This document shows positions 42,515 to 59,967 of a stretch of 64,000 nt of DNA, piece after piece. The notes below the pieces were generated by a model. That model was not told where the DNA came from, made no database searches, and saw only the letters and a list, made by a program, of their open reading frames with translations. The translations under genes were made by a program, and so were the position numbers. The stretch covers positions 22,718 through 86,717 of the forward strand of contig CAZEYP010000001.1 in the NCBI GenBank assembly GCA_964515925.1. Direction: 5' to 3'. The first letter of the stretch is position 1. Every line of letters begins with the position of its first letter. This DNA comes from an uncultured Nitrospirota bacterium. GTDB taxonomy: Bacteria > Nitrospirota > Thermodesulfovibrionia > Thermodesulfovibrionales > JdFR-85.

Positions 42515-42885
42515 TGCTTGTAGATACTTCCGTATGGATTGAGGCATTGAGGGTAAAAGGTGATGCTGAGACAAAAGAAAGACTCAGGCAGTTGATATTG
42601 GAGGACAGGGCTGTTTGGTGTGACCTGGTGGTGCTTGAACTACTCAGCGGAATGAAGGGTGAGAAGGAGAAAAAGAAGATTAGGGAATACATAGAAGAGA
42701 TAAGGAGTCTTGAGATTAACAGCAAGGTCTGGCAAAGGGCTAAAGGGTTAGTTGTTTCCTGCAGGCAAAAGGGATTTACGGTGCCTGTAACAGACATTAT
42801 AATAGCAGCCTGTGGCCTGAGCCACGGGGTGCCCTTAATGTATAAAGACCGACACTTCGACATCATACTGAGGGAGGTTCTATGA
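42496..42885 (+). CDS. vapC: Type II toxin VapC (PIN-domain ribonuclease)
   Basis: 129 aa with PIN acidic residues in VLVDTSVWIE, ..LVVLELL.., VTDIIIAA and KDRHFD. Its stop TGA (42883-42885) overlaps the fdhA ATG (42882-42884). Confidence 0.85.
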   Translation: MARQDVVLVDTSVWIEALRVKGDAETKERLRQLILEDRAVWCDLVVLELLSGMKGEKEKKKIREYIEEIRSLEINSKVWQRAKGLVVSCRQKGFTVPVTDIIIAACGLSHGVPLMYKDRHFDIILREVL

Positions 42886-45560
42886 TTACACTTATGATAG
42901 ATGGTAAGTATGTTGAGGTTCCTGAGGGGACGACCATACTTCAGGCTGCCCGTGAGGCTGACATCTACATCCCCACCCTCTGCGACGACCCACGACTGGA
43001 GCCCTACGGTGCATGCAGGCTCTGCCTTGTTCAGGTAAAGGGTATGCCAAGGCCTGTTACTGCCTGCACCACACCTGTAAGTGAGGGGATGGAGGTTCAG
43101 ACCAGCAATGAACAGATAGAGCGTATACGTAGAACCATAGTGGAGCTACTTCTAAGCGACCATCCCAATGATTGCATGGTCTGTGAAAAGGCAGGTGACT
43201 GCACCCTTCAGGAGCTTGCCTATTTTTACGACCTCAGAAAGAACCGATTCTGGGGTGAACGCCGTCAGTACACAAAGCGGGATGCCAATCCCTTTATTGA
43301 GAGGGATATGGAAAAGTGTGTGCTCTGTGGTAAGTGTGTGCGGGTCTGTGAGGAGATTCAGGGTGTGGCTGCCATAGACATAGCCTACAGGGGATTCAAG
43401 GCAAAGGTATGCCCTCCCTTTGAAAAGGACCTTAACTGTGAGTTCTGCGGTCAGTGCGTAAGCGTCTGCCCCACAGGTGCACTTATCGGCAAGCAGTCCC
43501 TTGGAAAAGGAAGGCAGAAGGACATAAAGCGAGTTGATACCGTATGTCCCTATTGTGGTTGTGGCTGTAACATAACCCTTCATGTAAGCCGCAATGAGAT
43601 AATCAGGGTGACCTCTGATCCAGACAGCCATAACGAGGGCTGGCTCTGCGTAAAGGGCAGGTTTGGCTTCAGGTTCGTAAACAGCCCTGACCGCCTGAAA
43701 AAACCCCTTATCAGGCGTAACGGTGAGTTTGAGGAGGTCTCCTGGGATGTGGCCCTTGAGTATATAGCAGAGAGGCTTAAAAAGATAAAGAAAGAACATG
43801 GTGCAGATGCCATCGCCGGGCTCAGCTCTGCCCGTTGCACCAATGAAGAAAACTACCTCTTCCAGAAGTTTATGCGTGCCGCAATTGGCACCAACAATGT
43901 TGACCACTGTGCCCGTTACTGACACTCTGCAACGGTGGCCGGTCTGGCCACAGTGTTCGGCTCAGGAGCCATGACCAACTCCATTGCAGAGATTGAGGAC
44001 AACGACCTTCTGTTTGTCATTGGCTCTAACACAAAGGAAAACCATCCCATAGTGGCACTTAGGATGATAAAGGCAGTGCGCAGGGGGGCTAAACTCATCG
44101 TGGCTGACCCAAGGAAGGTTCCCCTTGTCAGGTTTGCCCATCTGTGGCTTCAGCACCGCCCTGGCACGGATGTGGCACTTCTTAACAGCATGATGCATGT
44201 GATTGTAAAAGAGGACCTTATAGACAGGGACTTCATAATAAACATGACCGAGGGCTTTGAAAAGGAGTTCCTTGAAAACCTCGAGCAGTATACCCCTGAG
44301 GTTGGTGAGAAGCTAACTGGTGTTCCAAAGGAAAAGATAGTGGAGGCTGCAAGGCTTTATGGCTCTGCCGAGAGGGCTGGCATTTACTACACCATGGGCA
44401 TTACCCAGCACAGCCACGGCTCTGACAATGTCTTCAGCATTGCAAACCTGGCACTTATGACAGGCAATTTAGGGAAACCCTCCTCAGGTGTTAACCCTCT
44501 CAGGGGGCAGAACAATGTGCAGGGCTCAACCGATATGGGCTGCTCACCAGACAGTTATCCAGGCTACCAGAAGGTCCATCTGCCTGCTGTAAAAGAGAAG
44601 TTTGAAAGGCTCTGGGGTGTAAAGCTCTCTGACAGGCCAGGACTTACTGCCTCGGAGATGCTCTTTGAGGCTGAGGCAGGAAAATTAAGGGCCCTTTACA
44701 TAATGGGTGAAAACCCGGTGCTCAGTGACCCTGATGTGGGGCATACGGTGAGGGCATTAAAATCCCTTGACTTCCTGGTGGTTCAGGACATATTCATGAC
44801 CGAGACAGCAGAGCTTGCCGATGTGGTGCTTCCAGCTGCAAGCTTTGCTGAAAAGGACGGCACCTTTACAAACACAGAGCGAAGGGTTCAGCGGGTAAGA
44901 AAGGCACTAAACCCACCAGGGGATGCCAGAGAGGACTCCTGGATTATCACCGAGTTAAGCAAACGAATGGGCTATGAGATGAACTATGCAAATATATCTG
45001 AGGTGTTCAGGGAGATAGGACAGGCCTGGCCAGCAGTTGCAGGGATAACCTACTCAAGGCTTGAGCACGGAGGGCTCCAGTGGCCCTGTCCAACGGTGGA
45101 CCACCCTGGAACTCCATATCTTTTTAAGGGTGGTTTCCCGAGAGGAAAGGGTAGATTTACCATAGTGAAATACCGCGACCCCATGGAGATGGTAAGTGAT
45201 GAATTCCCCTTTATCCTGACAACAGGCCGTCAGCTGTTTCAGTACCATACAGGCACCATGACAAGAAGGGTTCCACCTATAAACGAGGTTTCCCCTGGAC
45301 CCTATGTGGAGATAAATCCTGATGACGCCCTAACGCTTGGCATTGAGGATGAGCAGAAGGTAAGGGTTACATCAAAACGGGGTAGCATAGAGCTTAATGC
45401 AAGGCTTACTGACAGGGTGGAAAGGGGTCTTGTGTTTATCCCCTTTCACTTTAAAGAGGCAGCAGCCAATGTGCTTACAGACAGCAGGGCACTTGACCCA
45501 CTCTGTAAGATTCCTGAGTTTAAAGTCTGTGCTGTGAATGTGGAGAAGATAGTTAATTGA
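42882..45560 (+). CDS. fdhA: Selenocysteine-containing formate dehydrogenase alpha subunit with a NuoG-like N-terminal Fe-S extension
   Basis: ORFs 42882..43922 and 43935..45560 are one frame joined across TGA 43920-43922. The context ..[30 protein letters not shown] is the conserved FdhA/FdhF Sec/Cys active-site motif. It has N-terminal [2Fe-2S] and 4x[4Fe-4S] motifs plus MopB and MopB_CT domains. Confidence 0.92.
43923..43955 (+). promoter_or_regulatory. SECIS element of fdhA
   Basis: cact ctgcaacg gtggcc ggtct ggccac agtg has a 6-bp upper stem with apical loop GGUCU (like the E. coli fdhF loop) plus a 4-bp lower stem. It starts immediately 3' of the UGA. Confidence 0.75.
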
Positions 45561-45640
45561 ATTAATAGCGTTGGTAGTGTTGATTGGAGTTGGGTTAGGG
45601 TGTTTTTACTACTCCCTACACGCTACACCCTGAACCCTAA
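45561..45640 (+). repeat. Dispersed composite repeat, copy M (GCGTT words, conserved core, CNCCCTA heptads)
   Basis: attaatagcgttggtagtgttgattggagttgggttagggtgtttttactactccctacacgctacaccctgaaccctaa aligns with 57440-57520 and with the reverse complement of 50830-50910. Confidence 0.85.
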
Positions 45641-45690
45641 ATATGTTATATTTATCAGTCAGCTAATTTGAAGGAATTCGGAGGAAAGAG

Positions 45691-46149
45691 ATGGTTCAGA
45701 TCAATGATTTAAAAGAGCAGATATTATTGAAAGAACTAAACGACGATGAACTGAACATAATTGCTGAGAAGGTTCAGGAGCAAAGCTTTCCAATGGGGAA
45801 GTTAATCTTTATGGAGGGCGAAGAGACCAAGGGTATTTATCTTATAAAAAAGGGTAAGGTAGAGATATCAAAGACCACCCCTGATGGCTGGAAGCAAACA
45901 CTGGCTGTGTTTACTGATGGACATTTCTTTGGTGAGCTTTCGGTTATAGAAGACAAGAAAGAGCACGGTGCAATTGCCACAGCTATTGAGGATACCGATG
46001 CCTTTTTAATTAAAAAGGATGACCTGAAAAGTCTTGAAAAAAGCAACCCTGAGCTGATGTATAAGATTATGAAGACCATTGCCCGTGTGGCAAGCCACAA
46101 TGTGCATACGATGAATGAAAAACTGGTGAAGTTGTTGATTAGTTATTAG
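45691..46149 (+). CDS. Cyclic-nucleotide-binding domain protein (no DNA-binding domain)
   Basis: 152 aa with a CAP_ED beta-roll (GEETKGIYLIKKGKVEI, FFGELSVI). Confidence 0.75.
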   Translation: MVQINDLKEQILLKELNDDELNIIAEKVQEQSFPMGKLIFMEGEETKGIYLIKKGKVEISKTTPDGWKQTLAVFTDGHFFGELSVIEDKKEHGAIATAIEDTDAFLIKKDDLKSLEKSNPELMYKIMKTIARVASHNVHTMNEKLVKLLISY

Positions 46150-46180
46150 TGTAATGGTGTATTGGTGTAGTGGTATAGTG
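46149..46180 (+). repeat. Left (G/T-rich octamer) arm of the stem enclosing the four-helix-bundle ORF
   Basis: gtgtaatggtgtattggtgtagtggtatagtg pairs with 46598-46629 (27 WC plus 2 G:U of 32, hand-aligned). Confidence 0.8.
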
Positions 46181-46219
46181 GTAAATTGATGATAGGATGT
46201 TTTAGATAAATAATATATA

Positions 46220-46591
46220 ATGGGATTGGATGAGCTTGAGATATATGTTCTGGCAAGGCAGTTGAGCAGAGTTTTCTGGAAAGTATATGAAGGAATGGAC
46301 AATAGCATTAAATACAACATCGGGACACAGGCCCTTAGGTCTATTGATTCAATAGGAGCAAACATTGCTGAAGGATACGGTAGATATCATTATCTTGACT
46401 GTGTAAGGTTTTACTATAATGCCAGAGGATCTCTATGGGAAAGTTTACACTGGATAGAACTCCTATACGAAAGGGGTCTTTTAGAAGAACAGGTTTACAC
46501 ACAACTTACAGATGACCTTAACATACTCGTAAAAAAACTTAACAGCTTTATAAATTCAATAAAAAACAAAAAGGAAAACCTTAATAATTAA
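46220..46591 (+). CDS. Four-helix-bundle protein (23S rRNA intervening-sequence protein family, PF05635/TIGR02436 type)
   Basis: 123 aa. ..LRSIDSIGANIAEGYGRYHYLDCVRFYYNARGSLWESLHWIELL.. matches the family signature (SIxxNIAEGxGR ... ARGSxxE). Confidence 0.85.
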   Translation: MGLDELEIYVLARQLSRVFWKVYEGMDNSIKYNIGTQALRSIDSIGANIAEGYGRYHYLDCVRFYYNARGSLWESLHWIELLYERGLLEEQVYTQLTDDLNILVKKLNSFINSIKNKKENLNN

Positions 46592-46678
46592 AAAATACAA
46601 TACACTATTACACCAATACACCAATACACAAATATACCAATATACCAATATATTATTTTACTAATACACCAACATTAA
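46575..46678 (+). repeat. Right (C/A-rich octamer AYACCAAT) arm; a 104-nt stretch with no G
   Basis: ..caatacactattacaccaatacaccaatacacaaatataccaatataccaatatattattttactaatacaccaacattaa runs up to the AGGAGG of fhs. There is no G from 46575 to 46678 (hand count). Confidence 0.85.
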
Positions 46679-46688
46679 GGAGGTCATT

Positions 46689-48452
46689 ATGCCACTTGAT
46701 CCAACCAAGCATGCAGACTGGGAGATTGCCGAGGCAGCTGAAAAGAACATGAAGACTGTTTATCAGCTTGCCGAGGAGATGGGGCTTGAAAAGGAGGAGC
46801 TTCTGCCCCACGGTCATTATGTTGCAAAGGTTGACTACAAGAGCATTCTTAATCGTCTTTCAAGCCGTCCTGACGGAAAGTACATTGATGTAACCGCCAT
46901 CACACCCACCCCACTTGGTGAGGGTAAGTCAACCACCACAATCGGACTCCTTCAGGGTATGGGCAAAAGGGGAAAGAATGTTATAGCTGCCATCAGGCAG
47001 CCCTCTGGTGGCCCAACAATGAACATAAAGGGTTCTGCTGCAGGCGGAGGACTTTCTCAGTGCATTCCGCTTACACCCTTTTCACTGGGACTTACAGGAG
47101 ACATCAACGCAATAATGAATGCCCACAACCTTGCAATGGTTGCCCTTACTGCAAGGATGCAGCATGAGTTTAACTACAACGACGAGCAGCTTGCAAAGCG
47201 TAACCTCAAAAGACTAAACATTGACCCCCGCAATGTCCAGATGGGCTGGATAATGGACTTCTGTGCCCAGGCCCTAAGGAAGATAATCATCGGTATCGGT
47301 GGAAAGATGGATGGCTTTATGATGGAAAGCCGTTTCGACATCGCCGTTTCCTCTGAGGTGATGGCCATACTGGCAGTTGCAAAGGACCTTAAGGACTTCC
47401 GTGAGAGGATGGGCAGGATCGTTGTTGCCTACGACAAGCAGGGTAACCCCATCACCACCGAAGACCTCGAGGTTGCAGGTGCAATGACCGCCTGGATGGT
47501 TGAGGCACTGAATCCAAACCTCATGCAGTCCATCGAGGGTCAGCCCGTTCTGGTTCATGCAGGTCCATTTGCAAACATTGCTATCGGGCAGTCCTCAATC
47601 ATAGCCGACAGGGTGGGGCTTAAGCTTGCCGATTACCACATCACCGAAAGTGGTTTTGGTGCAGACATAGGGTTTGAGAAGTTCTGGAACCTCAAGTGCC
47701 GTTTTTCAGGACTGAAACCCCATGCTGCAGTTATCGTGGCAACCATAAGGGCACTTAAGTGTCACGGTGGTGCACCTGTTCCAGTGCCGGGAAGACCAAT
47801 TCCTGAGGAATACTCTGAGGAGAATGTGGAATGGGTGGAAAAGGGTTGTGAAAACCTGGTCCATCACATAAACACCGTAAGAAGGGCAGGCATTAACCCG
47901 GTGGTATGTATTAATGCCTTCTACACTGATACAAAGGATGAGATAGAAACAGTAAGAAGGATAGCCGAGCAGGCAGGAGCCCGTGTTGCCGTCAGTGAGC
48001 ACTGGCTCAAAGGCGGCGAGGGTGCACTTGAGCTTGCCGATGCAGTGATAGATGCCTGCGAAGACAGCAACAACTTTAAATTCCTCTATGAACTTAATGT
48101 TCCAGTCAGGAACAGGATTGAGATGATAGCAGAGCATGTCTATGGTGCAGATGGTGTGGAGTATACACCTCAGGCACTTCAGAAACTCAAGGCAATCGAG
48201 CAGGATTCAGAGCTCAGCCAGCTTGGCACCTGTATGGTCAAGACCCACCTCAGTCTTTCTGATAATCCAAGCATCAAGGGTGTTCCAAAGGGCTGGAAGC
48301 TCTTTGTAAGGGATGTGCTTATTTACAAGGGAGCAGGTTTCGTGGTTCCTGTGGCAGGTGACATCAAGTTGATGCCAGGTACATCCTCTGACCCGGCATA
48401 CAGAAGGATTGATGTGGATACAGAGACAGGTAAGGTAAAGGGCTTGTTCTAA
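46689..48452 (+). CDS. fhs: Formate--tetrahydrofolate ligase
   Basis: 587 aa with [15 protein letters not shown] (P-loop) and overall FTHFS family similarity. Confidence 0.93.
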
Positions 48453-48465
48453 GGATTGAGTAATA

Positions 48466-48563
48466 GGGAGCGGGGATTTCGGATTTATGATTTTAGATTT
48501 TAGATTTCAGATTTAGATACTCTGTGTTCTCTGTGGTTTGTATCTTCAATGTCCCTGCTCCCC
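48466..48563 (+). repeat. Composite spacer element (NAGATTT heptads plus CTCTGTG nonamers) bracketed by gggagcgggga / tccctgctccc
   Basis: The sequence is gggagcggggatttcggatttatgattttagattttagatttcagatttagatactctgtgttctctgtggtttgtatcttcaatgtccctgctcccc. The outer 11 nt are complementary apart from one G:T. Confidence 0.8.
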
Positions 48564-48589
48564 ATAGCCCAATAACTTAATTTATAGCC

Positions 48590-48964
48590 ATGAACCATAT
48601 CGTTGCATCCATATTGATGATGAATAACTACTTCCATGATGTGGCCACAGCAATGGTGCCTGCCACTGCTGCGGTTGCATGGATGGTGCTTAATTTTTCG
48701 GAGAGGGCAGGCAGTGATGGAAGCAGAGATGTCTATTTAAAGATTTATAAATTAGTGGTAAAGATATTTGTTTATAGCCTGTTCTGGCTGATGATTGGAG
48801 CTATTCCACGGGTGCTAACCTTCAAGGCCTATGAGCTTAAAGAGGCGCAGATGAAGGGAGTCGTTACGGCACTTTTTGCAAAGCTTATTGTTGCATTTGT
48901 ACTCGTGGTTATAGGCTCTGTGATGTGGATAAAGATTGGCAGACGGCTGAAAAAAATGACCTAA
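48590..48964 (+). CDS. Small integral membrane protein, function unknown
   Basis: 124 aa with 3-4 hydrophobic helices and no recognisable motif. Confidence 0.5.
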   Translation: MNHIVASILMMNNYFHDVATAMVPATAAVAWMVLNFSERAGSDGSRDVYLKIYKLVVKIFVYSLFWLMIGAIPRVLTFKAYELKEAQMKGVVTALFAKLIVAFVLVVIGSVMWIKIGRRLKKMT

Positions 48965-49554
48965 CCCTTCTCGTTCTTTTCCCTGAGCATTTTTACAAGG
49001 CCATCATAGGATGACCTGCGGATAATGCTTTTAAACTGCCGCCTGTAGTTGTTTACAAGGCTTACACCTTCTATAATCACATCGTATACAATCCAGTTAT
49101 CACCTTTTTTAAGAAGTTTGTAGTCAACAGGGATTTCAGTTTGCTTTGATGTGACAACCAGTGTCTTAACTATTGCGTATTTGCCCCTTATGCGCTGTCC
49201 CTTGTATATTATCTTTTCATTCTGATAGGCTTCTATCTTCTTAAGGTAGGTTCTCTCAATAAGGCCCCTGTAAAGCTCCACAAACTCCCCTTTCTGCTTA
49301 TCCGACAGCTTTCTCCACTGTCTTGCAAGAGACCTCTTTGCCATCTCTCTGAAGTCAAGGATGCCAGAGACTGCCTCTCTGAGTGCCTCCTTACGCTGTT
49401 TTGCTTTGTCCTGTGACTTAAGGGCAGGGTCTTTAAGCACCTTTATCACCCTGTCAACGCCTGTCTTAACAGTCTGCAAAGGCTCAGAGGCCATTGCATT
49501 TGATACCACAAAAATAAAAACAATGCTTAATAACGCTATCAGTGCTTTTTTCAT
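48961..49554 (-). CDS. mlaC: Phospholipid-binding periplasmic protein MlaC (Ttg2D family)
   Basis: 197 aa with a signal peptide, Ttg2D-like sequence, and position at the end of the mla operon. Confidence 0.8.
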   Translation of the reverse strand: MKKALIALLSIVFIFVVSNAMASEPLQTVKTGVDRVIKVLKDPALKSQDKAKQRKEALREAVSGILDFREMAKRSLARQWRKLSDKQKGEFVELYRGLIERTYLKKIEAYQNEKIIYKGQRIRGKYAIVKTLVVTSKQTEIPVDYKLLKKGDNWIVYDVIIEGVSLVNNYRRQFKSIIRRSSYDGLVKMLREKNEKG

Positions 49555-50277
49555 TTATTTTTTTACCTCCCTGTCTCTGTACTGGATATAGGCGTCCTGC
49601 AGAGATATGTATGGGTCGAGGGCCCCTTCTACCATGTCCTCGTAATCTCCAATGTGAAGTGAAGTGGTGTTCACAAGGCTTGTGGCTCTTAGGGCAAGGG
49701 ATTTCTCAATCTCTATGTATGTCAGCGGGTCAAGCAGGAAGTCGCCTAATAGGCCAAAGGTATCTCTTAAGGATGAGGGTCCCAGGACAGGCCAGACAAT
49801 ATAAAACCCATGGCCTGCACCGAAATGGGCAAGGCTCTGACCAAAGTCTTCGTTTGAGCTTTTTATATTAAATTCCTTCTTTGCCACATCATCAAGTCCA
49901 AAAACCCCTGCTGTGGTGTTAATGCTAAATCTCAGGAATTCATTACCTGCTTGCTTAAATTTCCCCTGTAACAGACAGTTAATGAAGCGTACTGGAAACA
50001 GAAGGTTTTTGAAGAAATTGCCAATGGCTACCCTTGCATCCTGAGGAAGTACAAAGGAATAGCCCTTTGCAACAGGCTTCAGTACCCAGAAGTAGAACCT
50101 GTCATTAAACTTAAACATCAGGCGGTTCCAGGGCTCAATCGGGTCAGCTATGGTAAGCTCCACGGTATTATCAAAGCTACCATTATCGTTAAAGTCTTGG
50201 GCTCTAACATGGTTAGAGCTGAAAACAACAAAGAGGACTGTTACAAACAGTGTTATAAGAAAAATTCTTTTAATCAT
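49555..50277 (-). CDS. mlaA: Outer-membrane lipoprotein MlaA/VacJ
   Basis: 240 aa with the DPIEPWNRLMFKFND and GPS.LRD motifs of the VacJ family. Confidence 0.85.
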   Translation of the reverse strand: MIKRIFLITLFVTVLFVVFSSNHVRAQDFNDNGSFDNTVELTIADPIEPWNRLMFKFNDRFYFWVLKPVAKGYSFVLPQDARVAIGNFFKNLLFPVRFINCLLQGKFKQAGNEFLRFSINTTAGVFGLDDVAKKEFNIKSSNEDFGQSLAHFGAGHGFYIVWPVLGPSSLRDTFGLLGDFLLDPLTYIEIEKSLALRATSLVNTTSLHIGDYEDMVEGALDPYISLQDAYIQYRDREVKK

Positions 50278-50324
50278 CCTTCCTCCCGATAAAAAATTTA
50301 CTTCCCACCCCCTACACCCTATGA

Positions 50325-50771
50325 TTATTCCACTTTACCAAAGACAAACTTGGAAATCAACTCCTCCAGGTCAACGGCTGATTCGGTTTCCTGAATCCTT
50401 CCTCCGTTTGGTATGGTCTCCTCTGCTCCCCCAGGTGTTATCTCAATGAATTTTTCGCCTATTAGTCCCTTTGTCTTTATAGAGGCAATGGCATCTTCCT
50501 GAAGTTTAATATTGCTGTTAAGAGCCATTTCTACAAGTGCAGTGAAGTCTTCGGTTAGCTCCACTGACTTGACCCTGCCAACCGTAACTCCTGCAATCTC
50601 CACAGATGCACCTGGTTTAAGCCCACCTATCCTTTCAAACTCTGCATAGACCCTGTACCCCTCTTTGTTTAATATATCCAGATTACCGAGCTTTACAGAG
50701 ATATATCCAAGAGCCAGTATGCCCAGCACAACAAACACTCCTACCATAAATTCAATATCAAATCTCTTCAT
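50325..50771 (-). CDS. mlaD: MCE-domain protein MlaD
   Basis: 148 aa with an N-terminal TM anchor plus an MCE domain (..GLKPGASVEIAGVTVGRV..). Confidence 0.85.
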   Translation of the reverse strand: MKRFDIEFMVGVFVVLGILALGYISVKLGNLDILNKEGYRVYAEFERIGGLKPGASVEIAGVTVGRVKSVELTEDFTALVEMALNSNIKLQEDAIASIKTKGLIGEKFIEITPGGAEETIPNGGRIQETESAVDLEELISKFVFGKVE

Positions 50772-50793
50772 AGAGTTGCCTCCCTTTATATTT

Positions 50794-51020
50794 AAATCCG
50801 AAATACGAAATCCTAATTTCTAAACATTACAGGGTGTAGGGTGTAGCGTGTAGGGAGTAACAAAAACACCCCAACCAAACCCCAATCAACGCTACCAACG
50901 CTATTAACGCAAAGAACGCAATTAACTCTATAAGCGCAAGCAACGCAAATAACTCAAAGAACGCAAAGAACCCGATAAACTCGATAAACGCAAAGAACGC
51001 AACTTAACGCAATCAACGCT
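50794..51020 (-). repeat. Large composite repeat inside the mla operon (sense = minus): about 14 nonamers NNNNGCGTT, conserved core, CNCCCTA heptads, NNGATTT heptads
   Basis: Reverse-complement reading gives gattgcgtt aagttgcgtt ctttgcgtt tatcgagtt ... aatagcgtt ggtagcgtt gattggggtttggttggggtgtttttgttactccctacacgctacaccctacaccctg ... agaaatt aggattt cgtattt cggattt. The core 50830-50910 matches 57440-57520 at 75 of 81 positions, in inverted orientation. Confidence 0.9.
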
Positions 51021-51773
51021 CTAATCCAGTACCTTTATTGGGCCTTCAAGGCTGCCCATTATAAACTGTTTTACTGCAGGGTTTTCAGAGCTTTTTATCT
51101 CACCGGGAAGTCCTGTTTCAACAATGACTCCATCATGAAGCATTGCCACCCTGTCTGCAATATCAAAGACCTGCGGTATATCATGACTAATAACCACACC
51201 AGTAAAATTATATTTCCTGTGGGTCCTGACAATAAGCCTGTGAATGGCGTTCAGACTTATGGGGTCAAGCCCTGTTGTTGGCTCATCAAAAAGCACTATC
51301 TCGGGCTCAGTGATCAATGCCCTTGCCAGTGCCACCCTCTTTCTCATCCCACCACTTAGCTCAGCAGGGTATTTCTGCTCTATCCTCCTTAGTCCCACAT
51401 CCTCAAGTGCCTCTTCCACCTTTTCTGCGATAACCCTTTTTGAGAGTTTTGTCTTTTCCTGAAGCGGGAATGCCACATTTTCAAAGACCGTCATCGAGTC
51501 AAAAAGCGCCCCTCCCTGAAATAATACGCCGAAGCGTTCCCTGAGTCTGCAGACCTCTTTCTTGCCACAGGTCTTAATGATGTCTTCACCATCGATCAGT
51601 ATCTTTCCACTGTCAGGCCTGTAGATACCTATAAGATGCTTAAGAAGCACGCTTTTGCCAGCGCCACTTTTCCCTATTATCACCATTAACTCTTTGTCTT
51701 TAATGGTGAGATTAACACCCTTTAGCACCTCAAGGCCATCAAATGATTTTTTCAAGTCAACTATCTCTATCAT
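51021..51773 (-). CDS. mlaF: ABC transporter ATPase MlaF
   Basis: 250 aa with Walker A GKSGAGKS, signature LSGGMRKRVALARA and Walker B VLFDEPTTGLD. Confidence 0.88.
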   Translation of the reverse strand: MIEIVDLKKSFDGLEVLKGVNLTIKDKELMVIIGKSGAGKSVLLKHLIGIYRPDSGKILIDGEDIIKTCGKKEVCRLRERFGVLFQGGALFDSMTVFENVAFPLQEKTKLSKRVIAEKVEEALEDVGLRRIEQKYPAELSGGMRKRVALARALITEPEIVLFDEPTTGLDPISLNAIHRLIVRTHRKYNFTGVVISHDIPQVFDIADRVAMLHDGVIVETGLPGEIKSSENPAVKQFIMGSLEGPIKVLD

Positions 51774-51776
51774 CTC

Positions 51777-52604
51777 CTACACCCATACAGAGCCTATAAA
51801 GTAATCCCAGATTAAAATCAATATTGATGAAAGCACCACTGCCTCTGTGGTTGCCCTGCTAACACCCTTTGCTCCATAGCCAGTGTGATAGCCCTTGTAG
51901 CATGATACCCATGCCACTATAAGCCCAAAGCATAGGGATTTTACAAGTCCAATGGATATGTCTTCCAGGTCAATGAATTCATCCATCTTTGAAAAGTAGG
52001 TACCAGAGCTGAGTCCAAGGAGTTTCACTCCCACCACATAGCCACCATAAATTCCTACCAGGTCAAAGATGCTGGCAAGCAGGGGAAAGACCATAAGTGC
52101 TGCTACTATATTTGGCACCACCAGGTATCTGATAGGACTTAATGCCATGGATATAAGTGCGTCTATCTGTTCTGTGATTCGCATGATACCGATCTCTGCG
52201 GTTAAAGCTGAACCAGCTCTACCTGTTACCATCAGGGCAGAAAGCACAGGCCCAAGCTCCCTTATCAAACTCAGTGCCACGGCAGGTCCAAGCAGTGCCT
52301 CAGAGCCGAACTTGCTGAGGGTATAAAAAATCTGTAAAGAAAGCACCATCCCTGTAAATGCACCGGTAAGCAGAATAACCAGGATTGATTTGTTTCCGAG
52401 AAACCATATCTGTCTTATAAGTAGCCTGAACTTGAAGGGCGGTATGAATATATGTAGAATCGAGTTGAGCAGGAATATAAACATCCTGCCAAGCCCCTTT
52501 ATATCACTAATACACTTCCTGCCGATCTTCCTGAATAATTCTGTTATGTCCATCCATTGATTATAATTTTTATAGCAGGGCTTTTTCAAATCCATCAGGC
52601 ACAT
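51777..52604 (-). CDS. mlaE: ABC transporter permease MlaE
   Basis: 275-aa polytopic protein of the MlaE/Ttg2B family. The start is uncertain (an internal ATG at 52553 is possible). Confidence 0.85.
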   Translation of the reverse strand: MCLMDLKKPCYKNYNQWMDITELFRKIGRKCISDIKGLGRMFIFLLNSILHIFIPPFKFRLLIRQIWFLGNKSILVILLTGAFTGMVLSLQIFYTLSKFGSEALLGPAVALSLIRELGPVLSALMVTGRAGSALTAEIGIMRITEQIDALISMALSPIRYLVVPNIVAALMVFPLLASIFDLVGIYGGYVVGVKLLGLSSGTYFSKMDEFIDLEDISIGLVKSLCFGLIVAWVSCYKGYHTGYGAKGVSRATTEAVVLSSILILIWDYFIGSVWV

Positions 52605-52741
52605 ATTTTGCAGAAATTTTTTTGTTTACAGTAAGCAGGGCTATTTATTAGTATAGGTAGTATAGGGATTAGCAAGGATTAATAACCTGAAGAATGCATG
52701 GAGGTTAATGGCTGAAGCGCCTTAAAAATCAATAACTTATT

Positions 52742-54190
52742 ATGAGAAAAAAGATACTTTTTATTACGCCCCCTTTTCATGTTGGTGTGGTGGAGGTAGC
52801 TGGAAGCTGGGTGCCCCTGTACCTTGTATATCTTGCTGGTGCCGCAGAGGCTGCGGGATTTCACGCAGAAATCTACGACGCAATGTCAAAAAAGGTCGGC
52901 CATGAGGATGTGGCAAAGAGGATAGAGGAGTTTAAACCCGACTTTGTTGCCACCACTGCCATTACCTGCACCAGTTATGATGCACTCAGGGTGCTTGAGA
53001 CTGCCAAGACCATCAATCCCGAGATTGTGACCATTATTGGAGGGGTTCATGCCAGCTTCATGTACGAGGAGATGCTTGAAAATGCTGCAGTGGATTTTGT
53101 GGTAAGGGGTGAAGGAGAGATAACCCTAATTGAACTGCTTCAAGCTATCACTGCAGGCGACAACCCCTCAAAGGTCAAAGGTATTACCTACTGGGAAAAC
53201 GGTGCAGTGGTAGTTACTCCACAAAGGGGATTTATAGAGAGCTTTGACAACCTCCCCATGGGCTGGCACCTACTTGACTGGGAAGACTATACCTATTATA
53301 TACTTCCGAAAAGCCGTCTCGGAGCAATTTGCACATCAAGAGGATGTTCACAGGAATGCACCTTCTGTTCCCAGCAGAAGTTCTGGCACAAGACCTGGCG
53401 TGCCCGCTCACCTGAGGACATAGTAAGGGAGATGGAGCATCTCAGGAAGACCTATGATGTGGATGTGGTGCTTTTTACCGACGACTACCCATCACCAGAC
53501 AGAAAGAGGTGGGAGCGACTACTTGACCTTTTAATAAAGGCTGACCTTGATATGAAGATACTCATGGAGACAAGGGCTGAAGACATAGTTCGTGACAGAG
53601 ACATACTTGATAAGTATAAAGAGGCAGGTATAATACACATCTATGTCGGCACAGAGGCGACCAATCAGGAAAGCCTTGATTACATAAAGAAGGCAATCAG
53701 CGTGGAGCAGTCCCGTGAGGCATTGAGGCTTCTAAGGGATGTGGGAATAATCACGGAGACCTCCATGATACTTGGTTTTCCTGACGAGACCTGGGACAGC
53801 ATTGAACAGACCCTTCGTCTGGTACTTGACTACAACCCTGATTTTGCTCACTTCCTTGCCATTGCACCCTGGCCCTATTCAGACATTTACGAAGACCTTA
53901 AGCCCTACATCGTTGTTGAGGACTACCGAAAGTACAATCTGATTGACCCTATCATTAAGCCTAAAGAGATGAGCCTTGAGGACATAGACAGGGCAATTGT
54001 GGATTGTTATCGTGCCTTTTACATGAATAAATATGCCCAGATGCTTGAAGAGACCGATGAGTTCAAAAAAAATTACATGATTACAGCCATGAAACTAATG
54101 ATGGCAAACTCCTTCATCAGGAAAAAGCTTGGCAACATGGGCGGTGCAATGCCTGAAGAGGTAAAGAAGATAATCAATGCAACCGGTTAG
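52742..54190 (+). CDS. B12-binding-domain radical SAM enzyme (class B), substrate unknown
   Basis: 482 aa with an N-terminal cobalamin-binding Rossmann-like domain (..DFVATTAITCTSYDA..IIGGVHAS..) and the radical SAM motif CSQECTFC (CxxxCxxC). Confidence 0.8.
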   Translation: MRKKILFITPPFHVGVVEVAGSWVPLYLVYLAGAAEAAGFHAEIYDAMSKKVGHEDVAKRIEEFKPDFVATTAITCTSYDALRVLETAKTINPEIVTIIGGVHASFMYEEMLENAAVDFVVRGEGEITLIELLQAITAGDNPSKVKGITYWENGAVVVTPQRGFIESFDNLPMGWHLLDWEDYTYYILPKSRLGAICTSRGCSQECTFCSQQKFWHKTWRARSPEDIVREMEHLRKTYDVDVVLFTDDYPSPDRKRWERLLDLLIKADLDMKILMETRAEDIVRDRDILDKYKEAGIIHIYVGTEATNQESLDYIKKAISVEQSREALRLLRDVGIITETSMILGFPDETWDSIEQTLRLVLDYNPDFAHFLAIAPWPYSDIYEDLKPYIVVEDYRKYNLIDPIIKPKEMSLEDIDRAIVDCYRAFYMNKYAQMLEETDEFKKNYMITAMKLMMANSFIRKKLGNMGGAMPEEVKKIINATG

Positions 54191-54223
54191 CCTGTCTACC
54201 TCATAGGGCCACCACCGTGATAC

Positions 54224-54517
54224 CTATTTATCCTCCCTTTCTCTCAACTGTATTACATACTCAAAAAAGGATCTGCACTTTTTGAGCCTGAATATATAGA
54301 CCTTCTTTACAGGCAGGTTGAGCTTTTCAAGCTCTTTTATTAGTTCATCAGAGCGTTTTATGAGGTCCCTTAGCTCGGCCTTACTGAGGCTCTCGGCAAT
54401 CTGAACCCTGCTGCAGATATCATCAAACCTGTCTTTCCAGCTTTTCTGCTCAGCAAAGAGCATAGGGCCTGTCAGCACAAAAAACAACACAAAGATTGTT
54501 GTGAATACCTTTTTCAT
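54224..54517 (-). CDS. Small secreted protein, function unknown
   Basis: 97 aa with a signal peptide (MKKVFTTIFVLFFVLTGPMLFA) and a helical charged remainder. Confidence 0.45.
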   Translation of the reverse strand: MKKVFTTIFVLFFVLTGPMLFAEQKSWKDRFDDICSRVQIAESLSKAELRDLIKRSDELIKELEKLNLPVKKVYIFRLKKCRSFFEYVIQLREREDK

Positions 54518-54612
54518 ACTGTTAGCACCCTCCTTAACGATGGCTATTGTTAATAATACCAGAAAAGGGCTGATGGGTAAAGTCTTCTGTGCCCGTTCAC
54601 AGCTTTTTATGG

Positions 54613-55974
54613 CTATTTTTCGGTAATATCTCGGATAGAATCCTTTATTATCTCAAGCATCCTTTCAAGGTTTTCTTCACCGATACTCAGTGGTGGCATG
54701 ATGACAATCACATTGCCAAGGGGCCTGATTATGAGTCCCCGTTGTCTTGCCCTGTAGCAGACCATGTATCCCATCTGCTCCTGAAAGGGATAGGGCTCTT
54801 TTGTCTCTTTATCTGCTACAAGCTCAACTCCAGCAATAAGACCAATACCACGGGCATTTCCTACATGGACAAGCTCTGATACAGACTGAAGCCAATCTTT
54901 CAGTATTTCTGACTTTTCCCTTACAGCCTGAAGTGTATTGTCCTTTTCAAAGACCTCCAAAGAGGCTACTGCCGCAGCACAGGCAAGGGGGTTTCCTGTG
55001 TATGAGTGTCCATGAAAAAAGGTCTTTAGCTCCCTGTATTCAGCCAGAAAGGCCTGATAAACCTCGTCAGTGGTTATCGTCACGGCAAGGGGCAGATAAC
55101 CCCCTGTGATTCCCTTTGACAGGCAGAGAAAATCTGGCACCACCTCCTCATGCTCGCAGGCAAACATCCTGCCTGTTCTGCCAAACCCCACCGCCACCTC
55201 ATCAGCTATCATCAGGACATCATATTTTCTGGTAAGCTCTCTTACACCACGCAGATAACCTTCTGGGTGTACTATCATACCACCGGCTCCCTGAACAATC
55301 GGCTCAATAATCAGGGCTGCAATCTCATGATGATGCTCCCTGAGCAGCTCTTCTAATCTTTTTAGACAGGCCATACTGCATGTGTCCTGCATCAGCCCAA
55401 GCTCACATCTATAGCAGTAGGGGGAAGGTGCCCTGTAAGTCTTAAAAAGCAGGGGCCTGTATATTTCATGAAACAGGTCTATTCCGCCCACACTTACTGC
55501 GCCGATGGTGTCACCGTGGTATGCATTGTTCAGGCAGACAAAGGCATCCCTGCCCTCTATGCCACGATTTTTCCAGTACTGAAAGGCCATCTTAAGGGCA
55601 ATCTCCACAGAAGTGGAGCCATTGTCAGAGTAAAAGACCTTTGTAAGACCTTCAGGCACAATTCTTAAAAGCCTCTCTGCAAGCTCAATGGAAGGGACAT
55701 TGCCAAGACCAAGGAGTGTTGAATGAGAAAGCCTGTCAATCTGCTCCTTTATGGCCTGGTCGATCTCCTTTTTTCTGTGTCCGTGGATGTTTACCCAGAG
55801 AGAGGACACCCCGTCAAGGTACCACCTGCCGTAGATGTCCTTTAAAAACTCACCCCTTCCCTCTTCGATTATAAGAGGTGTGGTGGCCTCCCACTGCTTC
55901 ATCTGTGTAAAGGGATGCCATATTAAACGCCTGTCAGCCTCTTCAAGATGTCTGTTTCTTTCTTCAATAGCCAT
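54613..55974 (-). CDS. bioA: Adenosylmethionine-8-amino-7-oxononanoate aminotransferase
   Basis: 453-aa class III PLP aminotransferase with LIWHPFTQM, YHGDT, ADEVAVGFGRTG and the SKG.TGGYLP (PLP Lys) motifs typical of BioA. Confidence 0.88.
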   Translation of the reverse strand: MAIEERNRHLEEADRRLIWHPFTQMKQWEATTPLIIEEGRGEFLKDIYGRWYLDGVSSLWVNIHGHRKKEIDQAIKEQIDRLSHSTLLGLGNVPSIELAERLLRIVPEGLTKVFYSDNGSTSVEIALKMAFQYWKNRGIEGRDAFVCLNNAYHGDTIGAVSVGGIDLFHEIYRPLLFKTYRAPSPYCYRCELGLMQDTCSMACLKRLEELLREHHHEIAALIIEPIVQGAGGMIVHPEGYLRGVRELTRKYDVLMIADEVAVGFGRTGRMFACEHEEVVPDFLCLSKGITGGYLPLAVTITTDEVYQAFLAEYRELKTFFHGHSYTGNPLACAAAVASLEVFEKDNTLQAVREKSEILKDWLQSVSELVHVGNARGIGLIAGVELVADKETKEPYPFQEQMGYMVCYRARQRGLIIRPLGNVIVIMPPLSIGEENLERMLEIIKDSIRDITEK

Positions 55975-56025
55975 AGAAGTTCTTTAGCCCATCAAGTGCA
56001 GGATGTCTGATTATAGATTATAGAA

Positions 56026-57021
56026 CTAACCCTTTAACTCCTTATACACCTCTTTAAAGGGCCTTAGCTCCGAAAACTCATAGAGGGTGCTCATCGCCTT
56101 GCTTTCAGTATGAATCCCCCTTTCCTCAACTGCTGCAAGGGGATTAAGTCCGCCAACAATAACCATACCTGCCCTGTCTATTCCAACCCCCATCTCATAA
56201 AGAGGGGAGTTAGGCTCACCAATGCTCAATATGCCTCCTATACCCTTTTTCCTCAGCCGTTCGGCAATCTCAAGGGTCCTTTTATAACAGACCACAGGTA
56301 TCTCTCTGAAGCTTGCAAGCACTCTGCCTCTGGAGCCCTTTATTGCCCCCCTGACATCGGTCATCTTGCCGCGAATGAATATCTCCAGTGGGTCAAGAGA
56401 GGTGCCCTCATAGCTTATAAGCGCAACAAACCTCTTTGGTCCCTTTTCATCTATCTCCAGTACCCCACCAAACCTTGATGTCACTGGAATCCCCTCTTTC
56501 AGCAAAACACCGTTGATTGTCACACTGCATACCGTACCAATAGCCACCATATCCTTGGGCACCAGTACATCACCAAGCTCTTCTCCCTCAAAAGCAATGG
56601 CGACTCTGTTGCTCATTACATAGGGTGAGTCGAAAACAGGCCTCATTGCCCTTAGTGCGTCACTGAGGTCTTTTTTATGAATGTAGGATATATTCAGTAT
56701 TATCTGACCCTTCATGTTATTGATGTCCAGTTCAGTAAGATAAGAAAGGGTGTCTATCTTGCTTATTATAAAACCAACCTTGTCAGAGACCATTGAAAGA
56801 GAAAGTTCTTCTATTCCCTTTCTGGTTATCCGTCGCCCTTCTTTGCCAAAGGATTCTGTCAGGCCACGCTCGTCAAGTATCCTTAGATGGTATCTGACGG
56901 TTCTCTCAGATAGCGTCACGCCATAGAGCTTTAATTCCTTTGCAATCTCTCTTGAACCAATTATCTCATTTTCATGGTTTTTTAATACCTTCAGTATGGA
57001 AAGTAATGTCCTGTTTTCCAT
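56026..57021 (-). CDS. NrpR-like regulator (winged HTH plus two DUF128/NRD domains)
   Basis: Starts at ATG 57021, 5 nt after GGGAG (the track start 57045 lacks an SD). The N-terminal wHTH is ..IGSREIAKELKLYGVTLSERTVRYHLRILDERGL.., followed by a duplicated C-terminal domain as in archaeal NrpR. Confidence 0.65.
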   Translation of the reverse strand: MENRTLLSILKVLKNHENEIIGSREIAKELKLYGVTLSERTVRYHLRILDERGLTESFGKEGRRITRKGIEELSLSMVSDKVGFIISKIDTLSYLTELDINNMKGQIILNISYIHKKDLSDALRAMRPVFDSPYVMSNRVAIAFEGEELGDVLVPKDMVAIGTVCSVTINGVLLKEGIPVTSRFGGVLEIDEKGPKRFVALISYEGTSLDPLEIFIRGKMTDVRGAIKGSRGRVLASFREIPVVCYKRTLEIAERLRKKGIGGILSIGEPNSPLYEMGVGIDRAGMVIVGGLNPLAAVEERGIHTESKAMSTLYEFSELRPFKEVYKELKG

Positions 57022-57139
57022 AAAAACTCCCTCTGTTAAATGCATTTTTCAGGGTTTTCCAATTTTAACATTTCATAAACATTTATTTCACAGGAAATCT
57101 GCTTAATAATCAGATAGTTAGTTGATATTCATTTTTTTC

Positions 57140-57168
57140 TTGACAAATACAAGATATTGTGGTTTAAT
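57140..57168 (+). promoter_or_regulatory. Strong sigma-70-type promoter of nrdJ
   Basis: TTGACA (57140-57145), a 17-nt spacer, then TTTAAT (57163-57168) preceded by TGg (extended -10). Confidence 0.6.
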
Positions 57169-57194
57169 GTATAGCCAAGCACAATCTATTGGGG
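57147..57194 (+). promoter_or_regulatory. Two candidate NrdR boxes overlapping the nrdJ promoter
   Basis: Box 1 is 57147-57162 (reverse complement ccACAATATCTTGTat). Box 2 is 57179-57194 (gcACAATCTATTGggg). Both resemble the NrdR consensus acaCwAtATaTwGtgt. The centres are about 32 bp apart, the usual tandem spacing. Confidence 0.45.
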
Positions 57195-57361
57195 AGGATG
57201 ATGGTTTTCTGTAAGGGAGTGGAAAACTGGTTTTACTGTCTGAGGTGCCCCTATCTTTGTAGTAGCCAGTGTCCGATTGAGAGTAATGACCCTTTGCGTC
57301 TTTTGTCGCTTTACATAAAAGATGAGGCAACAACGGGGGAGGACAAGGGAAAGTTATTGCG

Positions 57362-57558
57362 TTGATTGCGTTAATAGCGTTTATTGCGTTCTTTGCGTTA
57401 ATCGGGATGATTGCGTTTATTGGGTTAATAGTGTTAATTGCGTTAATAGCGTTGGTAGCGTTGATTAGGGTTTGGATGGGGTGTTTTTGTTGCTCCCTAC
57501 TCCCTACTCCCTACACCCTGTCTTTTTTACTCCCTACACGCTACCCCCTACACCCTAA
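57362..57558 (+). repeat. Large composite repeat in the nrdJ leader: about 12 nonamers NNNNGCGTT, conserved core, CTCCCTA/CACCCTA heptads
   Basis: The sequence is gattgcgtt aatagcgtt tattgcgtt ctttgcgtt ... aatagcgtt ggtagcgtt gattagggtttggatggggtgtttttgttgctccctactccctactccctacaccctg ... ctccctacacgctaccccctacacccta. It ends 13 nt before the GGAGG of nrdJ. Confidence 0.9.
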
Positions 57559-57581
57559 TATTATTTCATCTGGAGGTTTTT

Positions 57582-59822
57582 ATGGGTTTAAAAGAAAAAG
57601 TGGCGAGGGGCCCTCTGGCGTTAACTGAAAACGCAAAAAAGGTGCTTGAGAAGAGGTATCTGAAGAAGAACGAAGAGGGGGTTGTTATAGAGACACCCGA
57701 GGAGCTTTTCAGGCGTGTGGCAAGGGCAATTGCTGCTTCAGACCTTAACTATGGTGCAAGCCCACAGGAGGTTGCACTATTGGAGGATGAGTTTTACAGA
57801 ATGATGACCTCTCTTGAGTTTTTACCAAACAGCCCCACGCTGATGAATGCAGGCAGAAGGCTTGGACAACTAAGTGCCTGTTTCGTGCTTCCTGTTGACG
57901 ACTCAATGGAGAGCATCTTTGAGGCGGTCAAGAACGCTGCCATCATACACAAGTCAGGCGGTGGCACGGGCTTTAGTTTCTCCCGTCTTCGTCCAAAGGG
58001 TGATGTGGTGGGCTCCACAAAGGGTATCTCCTCTGGTCCCATATCCTTCATGACTGTCTTTGATACAGCAACAGAGGCAGTCAAACAGGGTGGCACCAGA
58101 AGAGGGGCAAACATGGGTATCCTGAGAGTCGATCACCCTGACATTATAGAGTTTATTGCCTGTAAAGATGAAAACGACAGACTCAACAACTTCAACATAT
58201 CTGTTGCCCTTACAGAGGAGTTCATGAAAAAGGTTGAAGAAGGCGGAGAGTATGATCTGGTTAATCCACGCACTAAAAGGGTTGTCAAGAGGCTCAGGGC
58301 ACGGGAGGTCTTCGACCTGATAGTTCAGCATGCCTGGGGAAATGGTGAGCCTGGAATCGTGTTTCTTGACAGGATAAACCGTACCAATCCCACTCCTGAG
58401 CTTGGAGAGATAGAAAGCACCAATCCCTGTGGAGAACAGCCGCTTCTGCCCTATGAGTCCTGCAACCTGGGCTCAATAAACCTTGCAAAGATGGTAAAGG
58501 CAGGCTCTGTGGATTGGGACCGTCTTCGCAGGGTAACCTGGTCAGCAGTGCACTTTCTTGACAATGTGATAGATGTAAATAGATACCCCCTGAAGCAGAT
58601 AGAGGAAATGACAAAGGCAAACCGAAAGATAGGCCTTGGTGTGATGGGCTGGGCAGATATGCTGATACAGCTTGGCATACCCTACAACTCAGATGAGGCA
58701 CTGAACCTGGCAGAACAGGTAATGGGATTTATAACAAATGAGGGAAGAAAGGCATCTCATGAGCTTGCCAAAAAGCGCGGGGTATTTCCAAACTGGTCTC
58801 GAAGTATCTACAAAGACAAATTAGAGGTTCGTAATGCCACGGTAACCACCATTGCTCCCACAGGCACACTGAGCATAATTGCTGGATGCTCCTCTGGCAT
58901 TGAACCCATATTCGCCATCTGCTTTGTAAGAAATGTGCTTGAAGGCACAAAGCTCCTTGAGGTAAATCCCTATTTTGAAAGGATTGCCAGAGAAAGGGGC
59001 TTTTACAGCCGTGAACTGATGGAGCGAATCTCCGAGACAGGCTCCATCCACGATATACCCGAGATACCCGATGACCTGAAAAGGGTCTTTGTAACAGCAC
59101 ACGACATTACCCCTGAAGACCACATAAGGATGCAGGCTGCCTTTCAGCGCCATGTGGACAATGCTGTAAGTAAGACCGTTAATTTCCCTAATCACGCCAC
59201 TCCGGAGGATGTAAAAAATGTCTATCTGCTTGCCTACAAGTTAGGCTGTAAGGGAGTTACGGTGTATCGTGACGGCTCAAGGGATGTGCAGGTCCTCAAC
59301 AAAGGTGCTAAAGCAGAAGGCTCAAAAAAGGCTGACCATGAGTTGTCCTCTGGAAAGATAGTGCCCCGTAAGAGGCCAGATGTGATAAAGGGCACAACAA
59401 GGGCAATGAAGACAGGCTGTGGCAATCTCTATGTCACGGTAAACGAGGATGAAAGCGGACACCCCTTTGAGGTCTTCAACCACATTGGCAAGGCCGGTGG
59501 CTGTGCAGCAAGCCAGTCTGAGGCCATAGGGAGACTTGTCTCCCTTGCCCTGAGGTCAAACATTGCACCCGAGGAAATAATAAAGCAGCTTAAAGGCATA
59601 TCATGCCATCAGCAGGCATGGGCAAAGGGTGGAAAGATATCATCCTGTGCTGATGCCATTGCAAAGGCACTTGAGCTCTATATGACCCGCGGAAATGGTA
59701 ACGGAAAGGGCACGGTGGATGTGGTGATGCAGATAGGGGCCTGCCCTGAGTGCGGTGGGCCTGTGGAGCATGAAGGCGGCTGCGCAGTATGCCGTAATTG
59801 TGGGCATACGAAGTGTGGATAA
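57582..59822 (+). CDS. nrdJ: Adenosylcobalamin-dependent (class II) ribonucleotide reductase
   Basis: 746 aa with SACFVLPV, the TNPCGEQPL active-site loop, and a C-terminal Cys-rich tail [14 protein letters not shown] typical of class II enzymes. Confidence 0.9.
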
Positions 59823-59828: not shown

Positions 59829-59967
59829 CAGGGAGTAGGAATTTTAGATTTCAGATTTATGATTTTAGATTTAAAAACTCTGTGAACTCTGTGCACTCTG
59901 CGGTTTTGTAGTTAATTTGAAAAATTGGAATTTGGAATTTGTTCAGGATTTAAAAATTTCAGATTTA
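59829..59967 (+). repeat. Composite spacer element homologous to 24474-24618
   Basis: The sequence is cagggagtaggaattttagatttcagatttatgattttagatttaaaaactctgtgaactctgtgcactctgcggtt...ttgaaaaattggaatttggaatttgttcaggatttaaaaatttcagatttat. Confidence 0.85.

Follow-up and report, generated by a model that had tools for sequence, protein, structure and literature searches.

REP and BIME sequences (repetitive extragenic palindromes and bacterial interspersed mosaic elements) influence flanking cistrons through their stability or attenuation (summarised in PMC3049150 and PMC3116915); REPs are palindromes of 20-40 nt, linked to RAYTs (REP-associated tyrosine transposases) when arranged as REPINs. The small dispersed repeats (SDRs) of Nostoc, with units of ~21-27 nt, reportedly insert into each other and into heptamer arrays. 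BOX and other pneumococcal repeats are over-represented between convergent genes (PMC3049150, Table 1). Long simple-sequence repeats include the cyanobacterial short tandemly repeated repetitive (STRR) heptamers and the G-quadruplex (G4)-forming GGGNATC and GGGGA(C/T)T (PMC4692102), as well as the TAACTGA repeats of Beggiatoaceae (PMC4679880), and G-rich heptamers of Xanthomonas and Nostoc obey a placement rule, being sense G-rich after stop codons and antisense within 50 bp upstream of open reading frames (ORFs) (PMC4692102). Here we analysed an intergenic repeat element in a 64,000-nt stretch of DNA from an uncultured Nitrospirota bacterium (the window), whose intergenic repeats were compared with loci from strains, sister species and metagenome-assembled genomes (MAGs). 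The copies of this element, one of which fills the mlaF-mlaD spacer and another the spacer before nrdJ, probably form a lineage-specific family of non-coding, modular intergenic repeats in one uncultured lineage of Nitrospirota, BOX/BIME-like and co-transcribed with their neighbours.

Copies and anatomy of the element

A first-pass annotation of the window had described three copies of an approximately 80-nt composite repeat, two of them lying inverted around a 6.3-kb segment. Aligning the reverse complement of 50830-50910 (copy B) with 57440-57520 (copy C) without gaps gave exactly the 6 mismatches in 81 positions that had been claimed, and the third copy reported near 45561-45640 (copy A) is real, with 11/81 mismatches to copy B and 17/81 to copy C over 45560-45640 (a 1-nt offset). 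An inverted-repeat search recovered arms at 50821-50993 and 57357-57529, 173 nt long and 83% complementary, with 6363 nt between them. The tandem arrays noted on either side were likewise recovered by Tandem Repeats Finder (TRF), with GCGTT 9-mers on the 5' side (period 9; 15.1 units at 50883-51019 and 10.9 units at 57356-57453) and CNCCCTA heptads on the 3' side (period 7; 9 units at 57493-57557 and 4.1 units at 50831-50859). Using a 24-nt pattern across the non-repetitive junction, we obtained 3 matches in the window versus 0.03 in shuffles, and the similarity of the copies is therefore not a low-complexity artefact. The size of about 80 nt applies to an 81-nt core; the full element is longer, copies B and E (see below) aligning over 234 nt.

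Read 5' to 3', the full element consists of (GCGTTNNNN)2-22, a G/T-rich core of ~30 nt (GATTGGGGTTTGGKTGGGGTGTTTTTGTTA), (CNCCCTA)3-9 and often (GATTTAG-like)3-5. The element sits in untranslated sequence, either a 5' untranslated region or the spacer separating co-directional genes, starting at or a few bases from the upstream stop codon and ending just before the downstream ribosome-binding site (RBS).

Copy A (45552-45647, plus strand; nhmmer E = 8e-25, with Pfam context) lies between a molybdopterin (FdhA-like) gene (43935-45560) and a cNMP-binding gene (45691-46149) and is made of 2-3 GCGTT-type 9-mers overlapping the fdhA-like stop codon, the G/T-rich core and ~4 CNCCCTA heptads. Copy B (full element at 50786-51020, minus strand) fills the spacer between mlaF, the ABC ATPase gene upstream (51021-51773, minus strand), and mlaD downstream (50325-50771, minus strand), beginning immediately behind the mlaF stop codon and extending as far as the RBS; its GCGTT 9-mer array is at 50883-51020, the core at 50860-50890, the heptads at 50831-50859 and the GATTT-type heptads at 50794-50826. 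Copy C (57356-57557, plus strand) ends 24 nt before the start codon of the nrdJ-like ribonucleotide reductase gene (57582-59822, plus strand), with a GCGTT 9-mer array at 57356-57466, the core at 57460-57492 and heptads at 57493-57557 that include a 37-nt internal duplication. All three copies are intercistronic and, as had been reported, in the sense orientation relative to their own genes, whose earlier names agree with the Pfam matches of identical metagenome contigs. The earlier placement holds for copy A after the fdhA-like gene and for copy B between mlaF and mlaD, but copy C, which had been assigned to the nrdJ leader, lies between a small Cys-rich ORF and nrdJ.

This small ORF (57198-57365, plus strand; ~55 aa, FCKG..W.YC..CPYLC...CP) has no Pfam match and is conserved upstream of nrdJ in two sister species (loci L135 and L137). 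The first GCGTT units of copy C are its last codons and its TGA stop. Upstream of it we observed a promoter-like TTGACA-17-TTTAAT with a palindromic ACAAGATATTGTGG, which we take to resemble an NrdR box.

The three copies are not the only ones in the window, as a fourth, diverged copy (copy D; 19455-19539, minus strand; nhmmer E = 4e-9) lies antisense to the plus-strand genes at 17243-19456 and 19540-21543, its core being ~60-66% identical to the other cores. Taking the window together with contigs L140, L143, L269 and L270, which cover ~97 kb of the genome, we found at least 5 full copies: A, B, C, copy E upstream of mshE (L140:7790-8015) and copy F between purH and cutA (L269:8378-8694), with D as a diverged sixth. 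The core is thus not confined to copies A to C, and the family is multi-copy and dispersed. Over 234 nt, copy B matches copy E at 87.6% identity, idiosyncratic array units included, so that whole elements of ~230 nt must have been copied and not grown independently, and when B, E, C and F were aligned with the copies of the MAG L007, the fixed modules and the variable tandem module were seen to travel as one unit. L007, from a related species (EF-P 94% identical), carries 3 copies, upstream of efp and after purH; L139 and L148 (MlaD 93-94% identical) carry 2 variants whose loop houses an additional, nested hairpin module. Contigs end inside repeat copies, including B or C in two metagenomes, and the copy numbers in MAGs are therefore probably underestimates.

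The strict core pattern had 0 matches in viral contigs, and a protein search with the repeat's open frame, aimed at spurious ORFs over other copies, returned no matches. At gathering score, Rfam reported only 3 tRNAs in the window, and nothing at E <= 1 in 45000-58000. Two looser patterns were set aside: TTGGTNGNGTTGATTNNNGTTNG in metagenomes gave at least 120 loci, which are chance matches (none among the matches listed carried the element), and a loose GCGTT-9mer pattern in viral contigs matched many unrelated contigs and was uninformative.

Gain at tight junctions and orientation

The mlaF-mlaD spacer measures 249 nt here and 368 nt in L139 and L148, versus 15, 13, 14 and 12 nt in L135, L137, L146 and L147 respectively, and the flanks of the insert can be aligned on both sides, at the stop codon and over the RBS-proximal 14-15 nt. 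Since sister species have the tight junction, the copy B element was gained. At pepP-efp, the spacer holds a GATTT/CTCTGTG-type element here and a GCGTT-type element in L007, and measures 112 nt in L271 and 26 nt in L272; between the small ORF and nrdJ, it is 216 nt here (copy C), 165 nt of other modules in L135 and 26 nt in L137. These comparisons of filled and empty spacers show that tight intercistronic junctions have been repeatedly colonised. The spread suggested by the first-pass annotation is thereby borne out for at least one copy, gained where the mlaF-mlaD site of sister species is empty, and the family as a whole is multi-copy, non-coding and present or absent at orthologous sites.

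The element is sense at 7 independent loci (A, B, C, E, F, L007a and the second L139 copy) and antisense at 1 (D). Copies B and F are on the minus strand together with minus-strand genes, so the orientation tracks transcription and not the DNA strand, and copy B points the opposite way to A and C only because transcription of the mla operon runs on the other strand. Rho avoidance, considered as a cause of this polarity, was rejected, as C-rich, G-poor arrays (ACCAATAC, CNCCCTA) are also sense.

Unit-length variation and conservation of the core

Strains ~99.95% identical to this genome were found in three metagenomes of the Joint Genome Institute (JGI; 3300009408, 3300023503 and 3300023507) and one SRA run (SRR5189949). 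The only indels among them are a gain of 9 nt (TTGCGTTCT) at 57383 in copy C, carried by two strains, a loss of 8 nt (AATATACC) at 46631 in a ACCAATAC array (46631-46638) and a gain of 7 nt (GTAGGGG) at L140:5309 in an AGGGTGT array. Each corresponds to one repeat unit within an array, and such whole-unit indels are slipped-strand behaviour.

Core identity between this genome and L007 is 90-94%, and copy B, in its right part, reaches ~91% identity with the orthologous copy in L139 (counted by hand from the alignment), whereas third codon positions are only 51-62% identical to L007 and 58-66% to L139. Conservation of the core above this background points to constraint, which could reflect either a role in the host or the propagation of the element itself. 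The identity of B and C had earlier been read as a sign of recent spread or gene conversion; however, 90-94% is the norm of the family, even across species, and a special identity of this pair through recent conversion is not supported.

That the element is selfish or neutral low-complexity filler, its arrays growing by slippage and its copies homogenised by ectopic gene conversion with no effect on the host, is possible but unlikely. Such filler would fit the unit-length indels as the only ones between strains, the massive turnover of spacer content between close species and flanking genes that have no common functional theme. Yet copy F is 92-94% identical to the L007 copies and 81-90% to its own paralogues, which is the opposite of within-genome homogenisation and therefore not the pattern expected of genome-wide gene conversion, and neither a core identity far above that of third codon positions nor the bias towards the sense orientation is what filler predicts.

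Predicted RNA structure and proposed mechanism

A closing stem of 7-8 bp, GGTAGCGT/ACGCTAC(C), is present in copies A, B, C, F, L7a and L7b1, with both motifs also found in E in the A3 alignment; it spans 39-76 nt, and A and L7b1 have one G-U wobble each, which represent two independent changes. In copy C (plus strand), the left arm GGTAGCGT (57454-57461) pairs with the right arm ACGCTACC (57538-57545); in copy B (minus strand, read in sense), GGTAGCGT (50889-50896) pairs with ACGCTACA (50842-50849); in copy A (plus strand), GGTAGTGT (45573-45580) pairs with ACGCTACA (45620-45627) through the one wobble. Sense-strand folds had z-scores of -3.0 for C, -3.2 for L7a and -5.4 for the nested variants of L139. 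A scan for promoters and terminators found no such site inside the copies.

In the mechanism that we propose for this BOX/BIME-like family, the element would be transcribed within the mRNA of its neighbours, having no promoter- or terminator-like site of its own, and in the transcript GGUAGCGU and ACGCUAC(C) would pair to close an imperfect hairpin. The analogy with REP/BIME, BOX and Correia elements suggests that the element may tune the flanking cistrons in their stability, their processing or the coupling of their translation. Copy-and-paste, template switching and ectopic conversion are candidate routes of its spread, and the elements can take up other modules, nested within them.

Several points weigh against this interpretation. 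Eight loci underlie the sense bias (two-sided binomial p ~0.07), and the strict core pattern matched 1 contig, that of the L007 MAG, among 185,579 GTDB species representatives; the true copy number and range of the family are uncertain. The hairpin is weak for A (z = -1.0) and B (z = -0.6), and the RNAalifold consensus reaches only -9 kcal/mol with almost no covariation, the copies being too similar for it. For the L139 variants, the folds of the two strands are equally good, and a palindrome acting at the DNA level is conceivable for them. Conservation of the core could stem from the needs of an unknown mobilising machinery or from gene conversion, and not from host function, and the suggested effect on flanking cistrons is drawn from analogy.

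A bolder extension, which we regard as rather unlikely, is that the copies represent a new class of conserved cis-acting intercistronic RNA module, placed sense-only between stop codon and RBS, spreading in a transcription-linked manner without transposase ends and using its arrays as tunable spacers. If this were true, the spread would be RNA- or template-switch-mediated, the module would be installed by the host or by the element itself, and the arrays would set the relative expression of the cistrons.

Further ideas on the function of the arrays were rejected. For an anti-Shine-Dalgarno role, in which the CUCCC heptads would sequester the downstream RBS, predicted Shine-Dalgarno accessibilities were 0.88, 0.34 and 0.27 at 3 heptad-preceded genes, no lower than the mean of 0.38 for 26 other genes (p = 0.89). 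A general spacer rule, with a G/T-rich first half and an A/C-rich second half, was discarded because the trend is weak (15/22 spacers, Wilcoxon p = 0.04). Coding of Ala-Leu-Ile repeats by the 9-mer arrays was also rejected, as the frame is not conserved: copy B is broken by in-frame stops and a unit of 10 nt, copy E by a shift of 1 nt. Read as open frames, the 9-mer arrays give Ala/Leu/Ile-rich pseudo-peptides (57362-57628 and L140:7738-7998), and the JGI annotation has an 86-aa ORF called over copy E; an 88-aa ORF lies over copy C.

Mobile-element, DNA-level and inversion readings

The first-pass annotation had also proposed behaviour like that of a miniature inverted-repeat transposable element (MITE). 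The likeness holds loosely, in that the elements are small, dispersed and gained, but they lack terminal inverted repeats and a convincing target-site duplication. A classical MITE, that is, a non-autonomous DNA transposon mobilised in trans by a transposase encoded by an insertion sequence, is improbable. It would account for small, non-coding, multi-copy intergenic sequences, for orthologous sites that hold the element in certain species but not in the rest, and for modules nested in one another. However, an inverted search (seed 6) returned no terminal inverted repeats in the full copies B, E and C, comparison of the filled and empty mlaF-mlaD sites gave only an imperfect TAGAG / TAAAG, i.e. 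TA(A/G)AG, flanking copy B, and no transposase was found among the Pfam-annotated genes of the fetched loci and of the part of the window spanned by L001. An orientation that tracks transcription is, moreover, not predicted by cut-and-paste DNA transposition.

Action at the level of DNA, with the 9-nt and 7-nt arrays serving as protein-binding sites or the heptads forming G-quadruplexes on the template strand that modulate transcription, we hold to be very unlikely. The complement of the heptads does read as repeated GGG-N4, copy C has at least 4 consecutive antisense G-tracts, and the placement rule of the G4-forming GGGNATC (PMC4692102) holds here; copies A and B, however, have only 3 G-tracts, one of them set apart by an 11-nt loop, G4 potential is absent from both the GCGTT arrays and the conserved core, and we identified no candidate binding protein.

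As to the inversion of the 6.3-kb segment between B and C that the first-pass annotation had inferred, the three independent strain assemblies that span it (~99.95%) and two sister species all have a single orientation, the order and orientation nrdJ-NrpR-bioA-(rSAM)-mlaE-mlaF-mlaD in L135 and L137 being the same as in the window; a fourth, short strain contig covers only mlaD to FTHFS. Pfam matches in and beside 51021-57361 comprised MlaE, MlaF, B12-radical SAM, Aminotran_3, an NrpR-like regulator and ribonucleotide reductase, with no recombinase. The longest perfect match between B and C is 29 nt. About this length is the minimum commonly cited for RecA-dependent recombination. Homologous or site-specific inversion between B and C, as a switch or a recurrent rearrangement that would split mla and uncouple nrdJ, is extremely unlikely: in its favour are the inverted arms (83% over 173 nt, 93% over the 81-nt core), this 29-nt match and the contigs from two metagenomes that end within B or C, but the arrangement is single and no recombinase gene adjoins it, breaking the operon and parting nrdJ from its promoter should be selected against, an orientation that follows transcription accounts fully for the inverted geometry, and contig breaks are expected with any repeat of at least 5 copies. 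Judged from assemblies, rare RecA-mediated inversion is conceivable, though nothing gives an indication of its occurrence or use. Inverted repeats that bracket genes need not mean an inversion system.

Other repeats and features of the window

The window contains 27 merged arrays with a period of 7-9 or multiples thereof (TRF, 64 kb), the large array families lying in intergenic spacers. Their vocabulary of tandem units comprises GATTTNA, CTCTGTGNN, ACCAATAC/TGGTGTAG, AGGGTGT/ACACCCT, TGAGTTT and GCGTTNNNN. We observed a second composite family, always sense, composed of (GATTTNA)n and (CTCTGTGNN)n followed by TTTGGAAAATTGGGATTTGGAATTTG, at 24473-24636, 48475-48547, 59841-59952 and L269:4074-4346; it fills the pepP-efp spacer here, at the place where L007 has the GCGTT-type element. 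Long nested hairpins built of G-rich heptads, TGAGTTT heptads and their complements directly follow stop codons at 16937-17100 and L140:1823-1880 (z = -5.0 and -5.3).

A 23S_rRNA_IVP gene (PF05635; 46220-46591) is bracketed by inverted 8-mer arrays at 46144-46188 and 46598-46642, (TGGTGTAG)n and (CACCAATA)n, of 45 nt and 78% complementary. The L135 orthologue is similarly flanked, and the layout recalls rRNA intervening sequences with flanking stems cut by RNase III. A probable IVP pseudogene fragment (YKFALKIIDLVRELQKEQKEF) follows a TGAGTTT array at ~14480-14560. In a cluster of three tRNAs (27521-28145, minus strand), (TCTGACC)5 at 27635-27670 and a partial complement at 27602-27620 lie between two of the tRNAs. 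A VapB-like + PIN (VapC) toxin-antitoxin pair (42274-42885) is located between NADH-dehydrogenase-like and formate-dehydrogenase genes and is absent at the same place in L135.

Concerning the host, the homologues of MlaD and EF-P carry Nitrospirae/Nitrospirota names in their sources. Among named organisms, the nearest are Dissulfurispira thermophila, with 69% identity in MlaD, and Candidatus Magnetomonas and Magnetoovum, with 75-77% identity to the EF-P of L007.

Implications

If the family is as described, a member of the Nitrospirota near magnetotactic, Magnetobacteriaceae-type lineages would build many of its intercistronic spacers from a few arrays of 7-9 nt, joined into conserved, copyable elements. 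It would offer a system in which to study how arrays give rise to a mobile module, how polarity is linked to transcription and how operon expression is tuned. On the practical side, the repeats fragment short-read assemblies, spawn spurious hydrophobic ORF calls and serve as markers of strains, in the manner of variable-number tandem repeats.

Comparison with known systems

We regard the family as an analogue of BOX and BIME and not as a member, the likeness being one of description and not of sequence. With the Correia/NEMIS MITEs (definition in PMC3049150), the elements have in common that they are small, non-autonomous, dispersed, intergenic and present or absent at orthologous sites; they differ in having no terminal inverted repeats, no clear target-site duplication and a transcription-linked polarity. 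The SDRs of Nostoc, likened here by description and not by sequence, are similar as very small, nesting repeats with no recognisable transposase. REP and BIME resemble the family as mosaics of short motifs in intercistronic and 3' regions that form hairpins (predicted here) and are transcribed (inferred here), whereas the bulk of the present element consists of tandem 7-9 nt arrays and the DNA sampled here showed no RAYT gene.

BOX of Streptococcus pneumoniae (boxA-boxB(n)-boxC; PMC3049150) is likewise a composite interspersed repeat with a tandem module of variable number, intergenic, co-transcribed with its neighbours (presumably so here), predicted to form a stem-loop and found in few close species, and large copies create spurious ORFs, as they do here over E and C. 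The two have no apparent relation in sequence. BOX has a 45-nt unit between two terminal boxes, whereas here arrays of 7 and 9 nt flank a unique core; the terminal inverted repeats of BOX, which resemble those of ISSpn2, are absent here; and, unlike the pneumococcal repeats between convergent genes, the Nitrospirota elements fill co-directional spacers.

The long simple-sequence repeats come close in the nature of the arrays. Head-to-tail units of 6-9 nt in a mostly intergenic position and polymorphism of unit number among strains, by which the long simple-sequence and STRR repeats are recognised, were both found here. Also alike are the strong enrichment of 7-9 nt tandem units between co-directional ORFs, the G-rich placement, the variable unit number and the transcription (presumed here), the heptad module following the G-rich heptamer rule (PMC4692102) and resembling the intergenic heptamers of Beggiatoaceae (PMC4679880). 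Those repeats have been described as simple arrays, whereas the Nitrospirota element joins two types of array to a unique core in a unit of ~100-240 nt that is copied between loci.

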